Origin: Escherichia phage vB_EcoP_EP32B
Strand: one strand, 5' to 3'
Length of the DNA stretch: 64,000 bases
Sequence record: OR544955
Shown: positions 3,568 to 33,882 of the stretch, in pieces
How positions within the stretch are numbered: the first letter of the stretch is position 1
Layout of the letters: every line of letters begins with the position of its first letter
Notes under the pieces: generated by a model
Database searches by the model: none
What the model was told of the DNA's origin: nothing
Seen by the model: the letters and a program-made list of their open reading frames with translations, nothing else
Program-made: the position numbers and the translations under genes

Positions 3568-5301
3568 TTACCCAATATCAATACGAGATCCGTCAACAGT
3601 GTATTGTCCTGAAGCTACTGAGCTCATTGTAGACATTGTTTCGGCCCAATCCCCGGCAACAGTCATATCAACATTACCATTAACAGTCCATTTAACGTTT
3701 CCGTTGACGGTGTAATCATGATTCCCTTCGACCTGAGTTTTAGCATCACCTTTAACAAGAATATCTGCATTTCCGTCAACAACTATTTTGATATTACCCT
3801 TAACGTAAAGAGTTCCATCGCCTTCAACAGTTTTAGATTGGTTACCACGAATAAAGATTGTGTCATTGCCGTCTATTTGATGGAGGCGGTCTGCCATGTT
3901 ATAATATATTTCATTAGCACCAACGTTAACAAGCTTATCGCCAGAAATCAAGAAGTTCCCATCACCATTAGTGATGTCAAAAAGGTCTTCTACAGTTTTA
4001 CGAGTACGACGCCCAGATGGAGAAACTTCCTCATATGACCCTGTTGGATGAACTAAACGATAACGTTCATTACCTGGAGTGTCATCAAATTCTTGGATAT
4101 GACCGCTTTCTGTTTCCATAGCATGAACGTATGGATACTCACCACGATAACTTGATTCCGGTTCTTTAAAAAGGATGCGTGAATCTAATGGAACAGGAGG
4201 ACCAGCCGGGTCTTCTGAATCGGTATTTCTAGTAACTAAATCGGCACCAACTCCTGGTGAAGGCGGTGTTTTAACAGGAACACCGTATGATTCCATGTTA
4301 CCGGTTAAAATAATTGTTGTTACACGTGAAGCGCGTCCTTTAGTCTGTTGGAACCATAATGAATCGCGCCCAGATTTGTATGCAGTTTTCCAATCACCTT
4401 CGGCCATTGCTTTAAGCATAGTATTGAATTTTGCTACACCACCAACGCCCATTTGGAAGCACATGTTTTCTAATGCCATTTGGCGAGATCTGTTCATTTT
4501 AGCATAAACAGGACCTACTTTAGAATTAGAACGAATGTCTTTCTGCATCTTAGCAAGGTCCTTCTCAAATAACGCTGTTGCTTCTTCTAATGTAATAGTT
4601 CCCGGATTTCCTGTTACTTCACGCCCTACTTGATCAGATAACAATTTATTAATTCGAGACATATCTCGGGTCTTTTCCATTACGATAAGGTGTCCAATAC
4701 CTACGGTAGGATATCCGAGATGGTCCCAATACACTTTATCACGAAGACCTTCGTCACGACGTAACATTTCTGTTATTGTAAAATTAGGGTCGTCATCTTC
4801 TGGAATATTTGCTAAATCTGTATCGTCTGGGTTTATACCATAATCTAAGTTGTTATCTTGAATTACGTTAGAGTTCGAATAATAACCAGCTTCACCACCT
4901 TGGTTTAATACGTTCGTATCATTACCTAAACGTCGCGGATACTGACCTGTCGGGTCTGAAAAACCTTCAAGTCTATTAGGCTTTTCACGTACAATTCCGC
5001 CATACGTACCAAGTACAATCCCGTTTGTTTTCCATTTGTCTAAGAAATGACCATATACTCGAGTTCCTTCAACAGGACCTGTAACAGAACCACCAATACC
5101 TGACATTGATGCAGACGTAATAGGTTGAATAACAGTCATCCATGGAAGTTTTTCTGTAGGAATACCTTGTACATCACCTTGTGCTCTCTGTGCCGGATGA
5201 AGTCCAACTACTCGCACTCGAACTCGCCCTTGTTTTAATGGGTCCATTCTGTCCTCGACAACACCCACGAACCAATTAAGGCTACTACTAATCATTTCCA
5301 T
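3568..5301 (-). CDS. 5: baseplate hub subunit and tail lysozyme gp5
   Basis: 577 aa; N-terminus [33 protein letters not shown], central lysozyme-like region, C-terminal VxGxxxxx beta-helix repeats. Confidence 0.95.
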   Translation of the reverse strand: MEMISSSLNWFVGVVEDRMDPLKQGRVRVRVVGLHPAQRAQGDVQGIPTEKLPWMTVIQPITSASMSGIGGSVTGPVEGTRVYGHFLDKWKTNGIVLGTYGGIVREKPNRLEGFSDPTGQYPRRLGNDTNVLNQGGEAGYYSNSNVIQDNNLDYGINPDDTDLANIPEDDDPNFTITEMLRRDEGLRDKVYWDHLGYPTVGIGHLIVMEKTRDMSRINKLLSDQVGREVTGNPGTITLEEATALFEKDLAKMQKDIRSNSKVGPVYAKMNRSRQMALENMCFQMGVGGVAKFNTMLKAMAEGDWKTAYKSGRDSLWFQQTKGRASRVTTIILTGNMESYGVPVKTPPSPGVGADLVTRNTDSEDPAGPPVPLDSRILFKEPESSYRGEYPYVHAMETESGHIQEFDDTPGNERYRLVHPTGSYEEVSPSGRRTRKTVEDLFDITNGDGNFLISGDKLVNVGANEIYYNMADRLHQIDGNDTIFIRGNQSKTVEGDGTLYVKGNIKIVVDGNADILVKGDAKTQVEGNHDYTVNGNVKWTVNGNVDMTVAGDWAETMSTMSSVASGQYTVDGSRIDIG

Positions 5302-16600: not shown

Positions 16601-16909
16601 ATGATGACCACTATTGAAGTTTTTGAATATTGTTATAACAGTCCAGTATGCAATAAAAGGGCCCTTGTAGAAAATTACGAGATTTACCATTTTAAACCTA
16701 AACGATATCGTTTGACTAAAGGTCCGTTCGCAGGGCAGCAGGTTCTTTGTACTGCTCCTAATGCACGACTGATGACTAGTATTCCACATTTCAAAATGGA
16801 ATTTATTGATGGGCCATTTAAGGGATTAACCACTCAAAGTTTAATGGCGTTTAGTTCTGACCCATTTTTGATTAAAGAAAAAACTTGGATAAATTTATTT
16901 TCTAATTGA
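16601..16909 (+). CDS. hypothetical protein (102 aa)
   Basis: ORF following upstream gene. Confidence 0.5.
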   Translation: MMTTIEVFEYCYNSPVCNKRALVENYEIYHFKPKRYRLTKGPFAGQQVLCTAPNARLMTSIPHFKMEFIDGPFKGLTTQSLMAFSSDPFLIKEKTWINLFSN

Positions 16910-16915
16910 GGTTAT

Positions 16916-17278
16916 ATGAAAGCATATCAAATTCTTGAAGGTGCACATAAAGGCACTATTTATTTTGAAGACGGTACTCAAGCCCGGATTATTGTCTCTA
17001 AGACTTTTAAAGAAGACGCTATTGTAGACCCGGAAATTTTCTACGGTTTGAATGCCCGTGAAATTGAAATTGAACATCAACCTAAAGTTAAAATTGAAGG
17101 TGGTCAACACCTGAACGTTAACGTTCTGCGTCGCGAAACTCTGGAAGATGCAGTTAAGCATCCAGAAAAATATCCGCAGCTGACCATCCGTGTATCCGGT
17201 TATGCAGTTCGCTTTAACTCTCTAACTCCGGAACAGCAGCGCGACGTTATCGCTCGTACCTTTACTGAGAGTCTATAA
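16916..17278 (+). CDS. autonomous glycyl radical cofactor (GrcA/YfiD-like, T4 Y06I-like)
   Basis: C-terminal 60 residues [61 protein letters not shown] contain the RVSGY glycyl radical motif and match E. coli GrcA as recalled; local GC visibly higher. Confidence 0.85.
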
Positions 17279-17502
17279 TGGCTAAATTGATTATAGAAGG
17301 GTCTGAAGATGTTTTAAAATGTTTTGCCGCCTGGTTTAGTTGCTCAGGCGAGCAATCATTCATTGAAGCATTTAGAATGGGTGATATTACTGGAAACTAT
17401 CCGACAACTGATATCACTGTACGTGGATATGGTATTAATGAGCCTATCCAATTGGTCGAATATGACCTTGCCACCGATGAGGAAATTCCTTATGTCGATT
17501 GA
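17278..17502 (+). CDS. hypothetical protein (74 aa)
   Basis: ATAATG overlap with GrcA stop. Confidence 0.5.
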
Positions 17503-17890
17503 AGACATCAAAGGCTATAAGCCGCATACCGACGATAAAATCGGTAAAGTGAACGCTATTAAAGATGCAGAAGTTCGAGGAAAAATACTAATGGCTCAAA
17601 TCCTATCAGGCTTTGGAACTCATTATGAAGCATCTAGACGCATAACTGAAAGCAATCCTTTTGGCCTTGTTCCGAAGCACAAGAAAATTCAAAGCCTTGA
17701 TGACTTTGAGAACCGCCTATGGGCCCTCTTTAATGAGTACAAGGCATATCTGAAAGAAGACGCTGACGATTGTCTTGAAGAAGATGAGATTGCGTATTAC
17801 GAACAACGCCTTGAACAGCTCAAGAACTTCCATCAGGTTCGTGACGAAGTATCTAAAGCAGTTAAAAAGTTAATTCCTTTCAAAGAGTAG
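17492..17890 (+). CDS. hypothetical protein (132 aa)
   Basis: start at [12 protein letters not shown] overlapping upstream stop (ATGTCGATTGA); frame of track ORF 17324..17890. Confidence 0.5.
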
Positions 17891-30502: not shown

Positions 30503-30673
30503 ATGCAAGTTAAATTATTATACCGTTTATTAAAAAATGGCAAGCATGATTGGTATTTGCTTATTAAAACCGATCCGAATTTTTTCTCTGGACAACCATT
30601 TACAGTTCGTCCTACTAAACGTCAGCTTCGCAAAGCTAAACGTTCTCATCGTAACTTTTATAGAGAATATTGA
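30503..30673 (+). CDS. small basic protein (56 aa)
   Basis: frame of track ORF 30476..30673, start MQVKLLYRLL. Confidence 0.35.
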   Translation: MQVKLLYRLLKNGKHDWYLLIKTDPNFFSGQPFTVRPTKRQLRKAKRSHRNFYREY

Positions 30674-30674
30674 T

Positions 30675-31088
30675 ATGAATATTTCTGAAACTCGCGGTAA
30701 ATGGTTCAAGATTGTTAAAGAAGACGAAGAACTCCAAGATAAGTTTCCTGAATTAAAGAAAGATACGATCATCAAGGTAATTGGTACTACTACCGAAGAT
30801 GGTTATGGCGACCATGGCATTATCGAAGTGATGTTGAACACAGGTGAGAAACTTTGCATCTATGACCGTGATACTTCTCTTTGGTGCTTCTGGGAATCCC
30901 ATTCAATAGATGAACTCGAAGAAATTGACCAAGTAGTTTGTGATGGTGGTCTTGGCGAATTCGAAGGTGAACGTATTTCTTATGCTTTAGCTAAATTAGC
31001 CGGTCAAGAAAATAACGACGGTTATGAAGGTAATCTGATGCAAGCAGCCGCAGAATACATTGAATATTTAGAAAGACGTTTAAGTTAA
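30675..31088 (+). CDS. hypothetical acidic protein (137 aa)
   Basis: start MNISETRGKWF overlapping upstream stop (TGATATG). Confidence 0.55.
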   Translation: MNISETRGKWFKIVKEDEELQDKFPELKKDTIIKVIGTTTEDGYGDHGIIEVMLNTGEKLCIYDRDTSLWCFWESHSIDELEEIDQVVCDGGLGEFEGERISYALAKLAGQENNDGYEGNLMQAAAEYIEYLERRLS

Positions 31089-31127: not shown

Positions 31128-31601
31128 ATGTTATTATCAGGCGCAAAATATAAAGAAGAAAAACAAAAATTTTATGATGCACAGAATGGTAAGTGTCCTA
31201 TTTGCCACCGTGAATTAGACCCTGATGTTCAAGGTAACCATCTTGACCACGACCATGAATTAAACGGGCCAAAAGCCGGTAGAGTTCGTGGGTTACTATG
31301 TAACCTGTGCAATGCAGCAGAAGGTCAAATGAAGCATAAGTTCAACCGTTCTGGTCTTAAAGGTCAAAACGTTGACTACCTCGAATGGCTTGAAGCTCTT
31401 CTTGCTTATTTGAAACAAGATTATTCTGATAATAATATCCATCCTAATTTTGTTCCAGACAAAACTAAAGAGTTCTCAAGACTAGGTAAAGAGGAAATGA
31501 TGGCCGAGATGCTTCAAAGAGGATTTGAATATAATGAATCTGATACTAAAACACAATTAATAGCTTCATTCAAAAAGCAGCTTAGAAAGAGTTTAAAATG
31601 A
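31128..31601 (+). CDS. 49: endonuclease VII (Holliday junction resolvase) gp49
   Basis: MLLSGAKYKEEKQKFYDAQNGKCPICHRELDPDVQGNHLDHDHELNGP..., matches recalled T4 endo VII. Confidence 0.95.
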   Translation: MLLSGAKYKEEKQKFYDAQNGKCPICHRELDPDVQGNHLDHDHELNGPKAGRVRGLLCNLCNAAEGQMKHKFNRSGLKGQNVDYLEWLEALLAYLKQDYSDNNIHPNFVPDKTKEFSRLGKEEMMAEMLQRGFEYNESDTKTQLIASFKKQLRKSLK

Positions 31602-33415
31602 AAATTGAAAAAGAAATTGAAGGATTAATTCGTAAAACTAATAAAGATCTTTTAAACGAGAATGCTAATAAAGATTCTCGTGTTTTTCCAACTCAACGGG
31701 ACCTTATGGCTGGTATTGTGTCTAAGCACATTGCCAAAAATATGGTCCCGTCTTTTATTATGAAAGCGCATGAAAGTGGAATTATCCACATGCATGATAT
31801 TGATTATTCTCCTGCTCTTCCGTTTACTAATTGTTGTTTAGTCGATTTAAAGGGGATGCTTGAGAACGGATTTAAATTAGGCAATGCTCAAATTGAAACG
31901 CCTAAATCGATTGGTGTTGCTACTGCAATTATGGCACAAATTACTGCACAAGTTGCTTCACATCAGTATGGCGGAACTACATTTGCAAATGTCGATAAAG
32001 TTCTTTCTCCTTATGTTAAACGCACATACGCTAAACATGTTGAAGATGCGGAAAAATGGCAAATCGCTGATGCGTTGAATTATGCTCAATCCAAAACAGA
32101 AAAAGATGTCTATGACGCGTTCCAAGCTTATGAATATGAAGTAAATACTCTCTTTAGTTCAAATGGGCAAACGCCTTTTGTAACAATTACATTTGGTACG
32201 GGAACCGACTGGACTGAACGAATGATTCAGAAGGCAATTCTTAAAAACCGCATTAAAGGTCTTGGTCGTGATGGAATAACTCCTATTTTCCCTAAGCTTG
32301 TTATGTTTGTTGAAGAAGGTGTTAATCTTTATAAAGATGATCCGAACTATGATATTAAGCAGCTTGCTCTAGAGTGTGCAAGTAAAAGGATGTATCCTGA
32401 CATTATTTCGGTTAAGAATAATAAAGCTATTACCGGTTCTTCAATTCCAGTTTCTCCAATGGGTTGCCGTAGTTTCTTGGGCGTATGGAAAGATTCGACT
32501 GGTAATGAAATTCTTGATGGACGTAATAATCTCGGTGTTGTAACGCTGAATCTTCCTCGAATTGCGTTAGATTCTTATATTGGAACACAATTTAACGAAC
32601 AGAAATTTGTTGAATTATTCAATGAACGAATGGATTTGTGTTTTGAAGCATTGATGTGTAGAATTAGTTCCTTAAAAGGAGTTAAAGCGACTGTTGCTCC
32701 TATTCTTTACCAAGAAGGTGCATTCGGGGTTCGTCTTAAACCCGATGACGATATAATTGAGTTATTTAAAAACGGTAGAAGTTCAGTGTCCTTAGGATAC
32801 ATTGGTATTCACGAATTGAATATTCTTGTTGGTCGTGATATTGGACAAGAAATTTTAACTAAAATGAATGCTCTTCTTAAACAATGGACTGAAAGAACTG
32901 GGTTTGCTTTTAGCTTGTATTCTACACCTGCTGAAAACCTTTGTTATCGTTTCTGTAAACTAGACACAGAAAAATATGGAAGTGTAAAGGATGTTACTGA
33001 TAAAGGATGGTATACTAACAGTTTCCACGTTTCAGTAGAAGAAAATATTACTCCGTTTGAAAAGATTTCTCGTGAAGCACCATATCATTTCATTGCGACA
33101 GGTGGTCACATTTCTTATGTTGAACTTCCTGATATGAAAAACAACCTAAAAGGACTTGAGGCTGTATGGGATTATGCTGCACAGCATTTAGATTATTTTG
33201 GTGTTAATATGCCAGTAGATAAATGTTTTACATGTGGAAGTACCCATGAAATGACTCCGACTGAAAATGGATTTGTTTGTTCTATTTGTGGAGAAACTGA
33301 TCCTAAAAAGATGAACACAATAAGAAGAACATGCGGCTATTTGGGGAATCCGAACGAACGAGGATTTAATCTCGGCAAAAATAAAGAAATCATGCATAGG
33401 GTTAAACACCAATGA
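31598..33415 (+). CDS. nrdD: anaerobic ribonucleoside-triphosphate reductase NrdD
   Basis: 605 aa contiguous ORF; C-terminal Cys cluster CFTCGSTHE...CSICG and glycine-radical region. Confidence 0.95.
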   Translation: MKIEKEIEGLIRKTNKDLLNENANKDSRVFPTQRDLMAGIVSKHIAKNMVPSFIMKAHESGIIHMHDIDYSPALPFTNCCLVDLKGMLENGFKLGNAQIETPKSIGVATAIMAQITAQVASHQYGGTTFANVDKVLSPYVKRTYAKHVEDAEKWQIADALNYAQSKTEKDVYDAFQAYEYEVNTLFSSNGQTPFVTITFGTGTDWTERMIQKAILKNRIKGLGRDGITPIFPKLVMFVEEGVNLYKDDPNYDIKQLALECASKRMYPDIISVKNNKAITGSSIPVSPMGCRSFLGVWKDSTGNEILDGRNNLGVVTLNLPRIALDSYIGTQFNEQKFVELFNERMDLCFEALMCRISSLKGVKATVAPILYQEGAFGVRLKPDDDIIELFKNGRSSVSLGYIGIHELNILVGRDIGQEILTKMNALLKQWTERTGFAFSLYSTPAENLCYRFCKLDTEKYGSVKDVTDKGWYTNSFHVSVEENITPFEKISREAPYHFIATGGHISYVELPDMKNNLKGLEAVWDYAAQHLDYFGVNMPVDKCFTCGSTHEMTPTENGFVCSICGETDPKKMNTIRRTCGYLGNPNERGFNLGKNKEIMHRVKHQ

Positions 33416-33882
33416 ATTATGATAGATTTTATCCTTGCGATTTTGTGAATGGCCCTGGTTGCAGGGTCGTTCTTTTCGTTACGGGTTGTTTGCATAAATG
33501 CGAAGGGTGTTATAATAAATCAACATGGAATGCTAGAAATGGTACTCCATTCACTGGAGAGACACTAGAACAATTAATTGAATGTTTGAATAATGATTAT
33601 ATAGAAGGATTGACTATAACCGGAGGAGACCCTCTCTATCCTGATAACCGAGATGTTATTCATCGCATTGCTCAAACAGTAAAAAATCTTTATCCTAATA
33701 AAAGCATTTGGTTGTGGACAGGATACAAGTTTGAAGATATTAAACAACTAGAAATGCTTAAATATGTTGATGTTATTATTGATGGGAAGTATGAGAAAAA
33801 TCTTCCGACTAAAAAGCTGTGGCGAGGATCAGATAATCAGCGACTTTGGTCAAATACCGATGGGGTGTGGAAACATGATTAA
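33412..33882 (+). CDS. nrdG: anaerobic RNR activating enzyme NrdG (radical SAM)
   Basis: CLHKCEGCYN radical-SAM cysteine motif. Confidence 0.9.
   Translation: MNYDRFYPCDFVNGPGCRVVLFVTGCLHKCEGCYNKSTWNARNGTPFTGETLEQLIECLNNDYIEGLTITGGDPLYPDNRDVIHRIAQTVKNLYPNKSIWLWTGYKFEDIKQLEMLKYVDVIIDGKYEKNLPTKKLWRGSDNQRLWSNTDGVWKHD

Follow-up and report, generated by a model that had tools for sequence, protein, structure and literature searches.

The 64,000-nt stretch of DNA from Escherichia phage vB_EcoP_EP32B analyzed here (record OR544955; in the following, the window) contains a short open reading frame that the initial annotation described as a host-like GrcA/YfiD glycyl-radical spare-part gene, recently captured from an enterobacterium. 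This raises the question of whether the gene as a whole came from a host or only part of it, from which host, and how recently. The results make it highly probable that the EP32B gene is the orthologue of T4 vs.6 coding for a PFL spare part, and a chimera in which positions 17094 to 17268 were overwritten by Escherichia grcA DNA via recombination with the host.

Identity and genomic context of vs.6

The open reading frame is the Mosigvirus orthologue of T4 vs.6 (Y06I) and codes for a 14-kDa GrcA-type protein; the coordinates of all features are given in Table 1. Vs.6 matched the Pfam family Gly_radical (PF01228) with residues 60 to 101 (E=2e-18), PHROG 1209 over its full length (9e-63, positions 1 to 120 of 121), the NMR structure of E. 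coli YfiD (PDB 6OWR, 2e-42) and, with its C-terminal domain, residues 696 to 759 of the PflB structure 1H16 (3e-26). The score against NCBIfam TIGR04365 was 159.1 bits (E=5.8e-47, profile positions 23 to 126 of 126), which is 11 bits lower than the curated equivalog cut-off of 170 bits because the N-terminus has diverged. As a standalone protein of 120 residues and about 14 kDa, Vs.6 has the size of GrcA/YfiD proteins (about 120 to 127 residues; TIGR04365, IPR011140), and it possesses the C-terminal glycyl-radical domain with the RVSGY motif, homologous to PflB residues 696 to 759 (approximately). The orthologues in T4 and Mosigvirus phages carry the names grcA or autonomous glycyl radical cofactor in GenBank and RefSeq. 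The open reading frame and the matches to Gly_radical, TIGR04365, PHROG 1209, and 6OWR confirm that a gene of the GrcA/YfiD spare-part type is located here. Both vs.6 and its spare-part function are already known, and the gene itself adds nothing new. The TAA stop codon of vs.6 overlaps with the ATG of vs.5 at 17278. A promoter scan around vs.6 gave nothing above the expectation from shuffled sequences, and a terminator scan of the same region gave no convincing gene-specific signal. Presumably, vs.6 is under phage control, whereas E. coli grcA is under host control of the FNR/ArcA type.

Table 1. Positions of vs.6, its parts, and other genes considered in this study (window coordinates unless stated otherwise)
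Feature	Position	Strand	Basis or remark
vs.6 / Y06I orthologue, phage GrcA-like autonomous glycyl-radical cofactor, 120 aa	16916-17278	+	ORF, ATG start
GAGG Shine-Dalgarno sequence, 4 nt 5' of the vs.6 ATG	16908-16911	+	read from sequence
Phage-native N-terminal half, codons 1-59 and first base of codon 60	16916-17093	+	GC, GC3, drop in identity
Escherichia grcA-derived patch encoding the glycyl-radical domain (highly probable)	17094-17268	+	2 mismatches/175 nt
RVSGY motif (R92-V-S-G95-Y96)	17189-17203	+	sequence; alignment to 6OWR and to PflB 1H16 residues 696-759
Gly95 codon GGT, predicted radical site	17198-17200	+	corresponds to G102 of E. coli GrcA and G734 of PflB
Phage-native gene tail (GAGAGTCTATAA region)	17269-17278	+	3 of the 5 mismatches to E. 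coli
pinA	30537-31088		upstream of nrdD
Endonuclease VII	31128-31601		upstream of nrdD
nrdD, anaerobic ribonucleotide reductase, glycyl-radical enzyme	31598-33415	+	Pfam NRDD 1.9e-170 and Gly_radical
nrdG, NrdD activase	33412-33882	+	Pfam Fer4_12/Radical_SAM
Klebsiella-patched vs.6 of phage KP17	223-585 (retrieved segment)
Klebsiella-patched vs.6 of phage JD18	1501-1863 (retrieved segment)
Klebsiella-patched vs.6 of a third phage	gene end 1862 (retrieved segment)

The window represents a Mosigvirus-type T-even phage; a 2.5-kb stretch of it is 98.5% identical to E. coli O157 typing phage 3. In its denV-regB early region vs.6 is located between vs.7 and vs.5, as in T4 and Mosigvirus mar005P1, and this conserved slot together with the full-length PHROG 1209 match places it in the orthologue group of T4 vs.6. 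The order vs.8-vs.7-vs.6-vs.5 is common to T4, Mosigvirus, Jiaodavirus, and Slopekvirus. The N-terminus MKAYQILEG... recurs along with the slot in Jiaodavirus, Slopekvirus, and Pseudotevenvirus, where the DNA of the C-terminal half is not E. coli-like, and homologues are also present in Krischvirus and T5-like phages. An earlier comparison found vs.6 in six of six T4-like genomes (PMC1524935, 2006).

The likeness to T4 Y06I claimed initially turned out to be orthology, supported by synteny and sequence. T4 Vs.6 (NP_049730), which is encoded in the same slot (denV ... vs.8-vs.7-vs.6-vs.5 ... regB), likewise has 120 residues and the RVSGY motif and shows 93% amino acid and 92.8% nucleotide identity to the EP32B protein and gene, with the E. 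coli-like DNA beginning at the same 5' breakpoint. The two genes differ at 26 nucleotides, 19 of which lie in the N-terminal half, and T4 Vs.6 has His73, where the EP32B phage and E. coli have arginine. The neighboring genes diverge far more, with a dS of 0.59 to saturation for the flanking genes. Strong local mosaicism relative to T4 was observed at the protein level: vs.7 (16601-16909) shows 62% amino acid identity with a dS of about 1.0, compared to 92% for vs.8 and 93% for vs.6, and EP32B vs.5 aligns to T4 vs.5 over 18 residues only.

A separate change was found further downstream in the same region. The vs.4/vs.3 open reading frame (17492-17890, + strand) contains a 167-nt deletion compared to Mosigvirus mar005P1, with the junction at 17576/17577; the deleted stretch corresponds to positions 4548 to 4714 of the retrieved mar005P1 segment. 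The resulting frameshift joins the first 29 residues of Vs.4 to the complete Vs.3. Among the matches listed for a 100-nt probe across the junction the deletion was absent, all of them aligning in two pieces spanning 246 nt. Vs.4 gave a weak match to the Pfam family Acb2_Tad1_hairpin, and T4 Vs.4 is an Acb2-type anti-CBASS nucleotide sponge. The EP32B phage may have lost its CBASS inhibitor.

Nucleotide identity between the 3' part of vs.6 and Escherichia grcA

E. coli GrcA/YfiD (WP_000627807; 6OWR) is, like Vs.6, a small standalone protein, 7 residues longer than the phage protein. Residues 61 to 120 of Vs.6 (EGGQHL...TFTESL) are 100% identical to GrcA residues 68 to 127, as proposed in the initial annotation, and this part is encoded by near-identical DNA. 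The N-terminal homology is recognizable from residue 21 on: in the AT-rich N-terminal half of the phage gene, residues 21 to 60 are about 35 to 37% identical to YfiD residues 27 to 67 (HMMER). Identity of the C-terminal residues alone is no proof of recency, because the same 58 to 60 residues are invariant from Escherichia to Pectobacterium. No variation in them was seen between the grcA genes of Escherichia, Citrobacter, Serratia, Erwinia, Pectobacterium, and Edwardsiella, and very little in Pasteurellaceae.

In a blastn search with the open reading frame, grcA was matched in all 5,426 complete E. coli genomes with 90.5% identity over bases 133 to 363 of the ORF. This figure is an average over two very different regions. 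From 17094 to 17268, corresponding to E. coli grcA nt 200 to 374, 173 of 175 nucleotides are identical (98.9%), whereas just 5' of this patch, from 17039 to 17093, identity drops to about 50% (27/55), which defines a sharp breakpoint. Over the last 183 nt, identity is 97.3% (178/183). The mismatches between 17094 and the stop codon are located at positions 17164, 17224, 17269, 17272, and 17275, and all are synonymous. The two within the core patch, 17164 and 17224, are both G in E. coli and A in the phage. Hosts lack the bases 17269G and 17272T, which occur in nearly all phages, and Tequatrovirus and Mosigvirus show a fixed difference at 17275, so that the final ~10 nt behave as phage backbone. 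Some of the E. coli matches were located on plasmid records (six places in one search, five in another). Five records of the E. coli set matched the full ORF at 95 to 99% and could be T-even phage genomes deposited within assemblies.

The relationship is closer to one host than to the others. Identity in the last 183 nt is 97.3% between the phage and E. coli, compared to 92.3% between E. coli and Citrobacter and 83.6% between E. coli and Salmonella. The corresponding dS, calculated for the C-terminal 186 nt, was 0.117 between phage and E. coli, and for the same codons 0.068 between E. coli and Escherichia sp., 0.42 for Citrobacter, and 1.06 for Salmonella. The donor is predicted from these distances to lie inside Escherichia, after its split from Citrobacter and Salmonella.

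Could such a similarity arise with no transfer of DNA, by purifying selection on the protein and convergence on the codons preferred by E. coli? The invariance of the C-terminal residues across Enterobacterales would favor this explanation, as would the fact that grcA is highly expressed and codon-biased. Yet in hosts with the identical protein segment, the last 183 nt show only 77 to 92% identity to E. coli, and the E. coli-infecting Krischvirus phages JSE, JEP8, and Sf20 and the T5-like phage DT571/2 reach only 70 to 75% over the same stretch. In Enterobacter phage EC-F2 (Pseudotevenvirus) the peptide segment is 100% identical, and its DNA is only 84% identical to E. coli. About 70 further phage homologues from IMG/VR showed 72 to 86% identity to whichever of 84 host grcA genes was closest; the baseline of homologues with no close host match (≤86%) was formed by Slopekvirus Matisse, EC-F2, and Krischvirus, T5-like, jumbo, and Pasteurellaceae-like homologues. 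With respect to codons, 55 of 60 are the same as in E. coli. Phage codon usage predicts 24.6 (maximum of 39 in 100,000 simulations), and codons drawn from other enterobacterial grcA genes predict 36.2. Together with the change in identity from 99% to 50% across a few bases, these data effectively refute an origin without transfer, to which we assign next to no probability. Nucleotide identity to host grcA thus lies far above what protein conservation predicts, and the suggested check of codon usage points the same way.

Composition of the patch and direction of transfer

The GC content of 17094 to 17278 is 47.6%, compared to 35.4% in the N-terminal half, 34.3% in vs.7, 39.1% in vs.5, and 37.0% in the window, and the GC content of the patch is reached by only 0.21% of the 185-nt windows in the 64 kb. 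The local GC excess over the flanking phage DNA noted initially is therefore real, and it agrees with the donor. GC3 is 0.39 in the C-terminal half and 0.23 in the N-terminal half. As the sole proof, GC content would be weak, since nearby 200-nt windows reach 43 to 46%; it is convincing because it is combined with the percentile in the whole window and with the alignment.

High identity alone gives no direction, and it would be equally explained if E. coli had taken the 3' half of its grcA from a T-even phage. Three observations speak against such a reverse transfer. Patch GC and GC3 are host-like, with a GC that ranks among the highest 0.2% in the window. In E. coli grcA the 5' part shows a dS of 0.07, 0.50, and 0.91 versus Escherichia sp., Citrobacter, and Salmonella, respectively, and the 3' part one of 0.07, 0.42, and 1.06; this equal divergence of both parts indicates that E. 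coli grcA was inherited vertically. Finally, the gene is located next to ung in 5,426 of 5,426 E. coli genomes. The probability of reverse transfer is consequently negligible. As the two core differences of T4 from E. coli are also toward A/T, the GC-rich patch, the vertical inheritance of E. coli grcA, and the G/C-to-A/T changes in the phages together indicate that the direction was from host to phage.

The sequence features are consistent with the following course of events. An AT-rich phage homologue of grcA would have had positions 17094 to 17268 overwritten by Escherichia grcA DNA when, in the course of an infection, it underwent homologous (homeologous) recombination with the host chromosome. 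Only within this tract do the phage and host genes resemble each other closely enough for recombination, which would set its limits. The phage-native tail fits a crossover that was forced to resolve inside the homologous stretch, by which the junction to vs.5 was kept.

Age and spread of the Escherichia patch

The assumption of a recent host capture held in part. Host-derived DNA is present in the 3' 175 nt, but the gene as a whole is old in T4-like phages, and a recent capture by the EP32B phage itself is contradicted by the fact that the patch is common to about 590 Tequatrovirus and Mosigvirus records. When phage records were compared with E. coli grcA nt 200 to 384, 497 of them matched at 95 to 99% and 96 at 90 to 95%. 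The matches of these about 590 records, all from the two genera (90 to 98.4%), invariably begin at E. coli nt 200, and across all 185 nt the identity to E. coli grcA stays below 99% in every phage. The carriers include isolates from Shigella, Yersinia, Salmonella, and Hafnia. Measured against the enterobacterial radiation the patch is recent, but only on that time scale. A different picture was obtained for Cronobacter phage Pet-CM3-4, in which the C-terminal half is AT-rich with a GC3 of 0.28 and is at most 80 to 83% identical to any host; we take this to be the look of an unpatched or long-ameliorated gene. In the simplest history, the phages had long possessed a grcA homologue, and host DNA took the place of its conserved 3' island at a later time.

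With regard to the number of such events, one conversion before Tequatrovirus and Mosigvirus diverged, with vertical descent only from then on and no repeated or ongoing exchange, would account for the 5' boundary shared by all records and for the lack of any phage ≥99% identical to E. coli over the 185 nt. The distances between E. coli and T4 (4), E. coli and EP32B (5), and T4 and EP32B (7), which fit a star tree rooted near the E. coli allele, also agree with it. We nevertheless regard this as unlikely, as the patch coalesces later than the N-terminal half of its own gene; a single event would be conceivable if synonymous change in the patch were unusually slow. In a set of 10 sequences (four Mosigvirus-type and six Tequatrovirus-type), 13 of 178 nt in the N-terminal half are fixed differences between the genera, compared to 0 of 175 nt in the patch (Fisher p=2e-4). 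Between EP32B and T4, dS is 0.40 for the N-terminal half of vs.6 and 0.146 for the C-terminal half, both below the flanking genes. In the core, 3 of about 43 synonymous sites differ between the two phages, whereas about 13 differences are expected at the rate of the N-terminal half (p=1.5e-4) and far more at the rates of the flanking genes. The statistical support for recombination consists of the Fisher contrast of fixed differences and a binomial test, with 10 phage sequences.

Across about 650 records, the identity of the N-terminal half to EP32B is bimodal, being either ≥95% or about 88 to 90%. This distribution, together with the 13 versus 0 fixed differences, indicates that the patch is younger than the divergence of its gene's N-terminal half. 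If the patch had been exchanged between phages, the crossover would have to fall within about 9 nt of the host-homology boundary, which makes separate or repeated conversions more economical. The sequence comparisons therefore suggest repeated host-to-phage conversion from Escherichia grcA. A C/T/G polymorphism at 17134 was considered as a mark of different donor alleles and dropped, as recurrent mutation explains it equally well: the position varies among Tequatrovirus as well as among Mosigvirus sequences, and the Escherichia sp. variants linked to it, at 17119 and 17197, are absent.

Patches from other host genera

The Jiaodavirus Klebsiella phages JD18 and KP17 possess the same gene in the same slot, with a patch that has the same boundaries, namely the EGG codons at the 5' end and a position 10 nt before the stop codon at the 3' end. 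The source differs in that the patch is 95 to 96.5% identical to a K. variicola-type grcA allele and 85 to 87% identical to E. coli. In KP17, JD18, and one further Klebsiella phage, GC3 is 0.59 to 0.62 in the C-terminal half and 0.25 to 0.27 in the N-terminal half. The 175-nt core of the Jiaodavirus genes contains 7 to 9 mismatches to the K. variicola-type grcA compared to 19 to 23 to E. coli, and the encoded proteins show the Klebsiella host-type residues LLDAVEH and, in JD18, also TSEQQ. The K. variicola-type allele was obtained by a protein search and contig look-up; grcA from a Klebsiella MAG was rejected as the donor type, being only 85 to 87% identical to the phages. Against phage records, the K. 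variicola-type gene gave 60 matches at 95 to 99% and 82 at 90 to 95%, and among the matches listed it aligns over nt 199/202 to 374, almost exclusively to Klebsiella phages. On this sequence evidence there appear to be at least two independent donor-recipient pairs with identical tract boundaries.

Host patches are not universal, since Salmonella grcA has no close counterpart: compared with all phages, it gave no match of ≥95%, and its best band, 90 to 95%, consisted of two records. A third host patch is possible in a 19-kb IMG/VR contig, in which the vs.6-like C-half core (1615-1797) is 91.2% identical to grcA of Yersinia artesiana, the one Yersinia grcA used for comparison, and shares its DVITRTF variant. 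Two unusual grcA records were encountered among bacteria. A 253-kb contig labeled Vagococcus sp. WN89Y (NZ_JBQPOM010000029.1) carries an enterobacterial grcA with 91% amino acid identity to E. coli; as Vagococcus is Gram-positive, the assembly is probably mislabeled or contaminated. A further grcA copy is present on 'plasmid unnamed4' (275 kb) of Klebsiella sp. WOUb02.

Taking the phage groups together, we lean slightly toward the view that the glycyl-radical half of vs.6 has been overwritten repeatedly by grcA of the genus currently infected. Escherichia grcA probably entered Tequatrovirus and Mosigvirus separately. If this view is correct, the conserved 175-nt island would be a standing landing pad for host-phage recombination, and the phage copy would evolve in concert with the host gene and tag the historical host genus of its lineage.

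Predicted function of Vs.6 and possible clients

According to a more recent article, two proteins have been validated as spare parts, YfiD and T4 Y06I, each of which is activated by PFL-AE and restores O2-cleaved PFL in vitro (PMC8683613, citing Wagner et al. 2001, PMID 11444864). From the 93% identity to the T4 protein and the identical C-terminal domain, activation by PflA and rescue of PflB can be predicted for EP32B Vs.6. The protein would be made during infection, and the radical-SAM enzyme PflA of the host would take a hydrogen from Gly95 in the RVSGY loop. The radical-bearing C-terminal domain would then dock on host PflB that had been cleaved by O2 at Gly734, and the docked Vs.6 would restore the production of acetyl-CoA and formate. 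The phage might benefit in two ways. Fermentative energy metabolism (acetyl-CoA/ATP) could be sustained in microaerobic hosts under gut-like fluctuating oxygen, and the supply of formate could be kept up for the phage-encoded class III ribonucleotide reductase, an enzyme class that uses formate as its reductant. In the searchable literature, we found no demonstration of an in vivo benefit of vs.6 to any T-even phage.

The nrdD and nrdG genes, located 14 kb 3' of vs.6, constitute a second glycyl-radical system on the phage genome, and their presence raises the question of whether Vs.6 serves a client other than PflB, such as the phage NrdD, host TdcE, or another glycyl-radical enzyme of the host. 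A role in nucleotide metabolism has been speculated on (PMC1524935), and spare parts for other glycyl-radical enzymes have been considered conceivable (PMC8683613). Vs.6 shows, however, no significant similarity to the phage NrdD (BLASTP E=11), and a function as spare part for NrdD was rejected on this ground. The C-terminal domain of Vs.6 is that of the PflB-matched host GrcA and aligns to the corresponding part of PflB, and T4 Y06I reconstitutes PFL, as stated in PMC8683613. A client other than PflB is therefore improbable, although TdcE, a close paralogue of PflB, is conceivable as an additional one. PflB thus remains the predicted client.

Significance and comparison with known systems

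At the nucleotide level, the result is modestly useful: vs.6 shows cleanly, and in model phages, how part of a host gene can be inserted into a homologue that the phage already possessed. By implication, T-even phages, although they degrade host DNA, recombine with the host chromosome often enough to leave fixed traces. The result also suggests that an exact match to the host partners PflA and PflB is selected for or at least tolerated. For T4-like contigs from metagenomes, the patch may serve as a small marker of the host genus; Tequatroviruses isolated from Yersinia, Salmonella, or Hafnia, for example, retain the Escherichia patch. No description of the vs.6/grcA patch was found in the searchable literature, to which the main T4 genome review does not belong, so that an earlier mention is possible.

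Host-phage intragenic recombination in cyanophage psbA (Sullivan et al. 2006, PMC1484495) appears to be the nearest described phenomenon. In psbA and psbD, as in vs.6, a host-type metabolic gene swaps sub-genic segments, which results in mosaic genes containing patches with host-like composition. The vs.6 system differs in that it concerns enterobacteria and anaerobic pyruvate metabolism and in that one fixed tract with the same boundaries recurs across phage genera. A further apparent difference is that the vs.6 tract is set by one island of extreme conservation.
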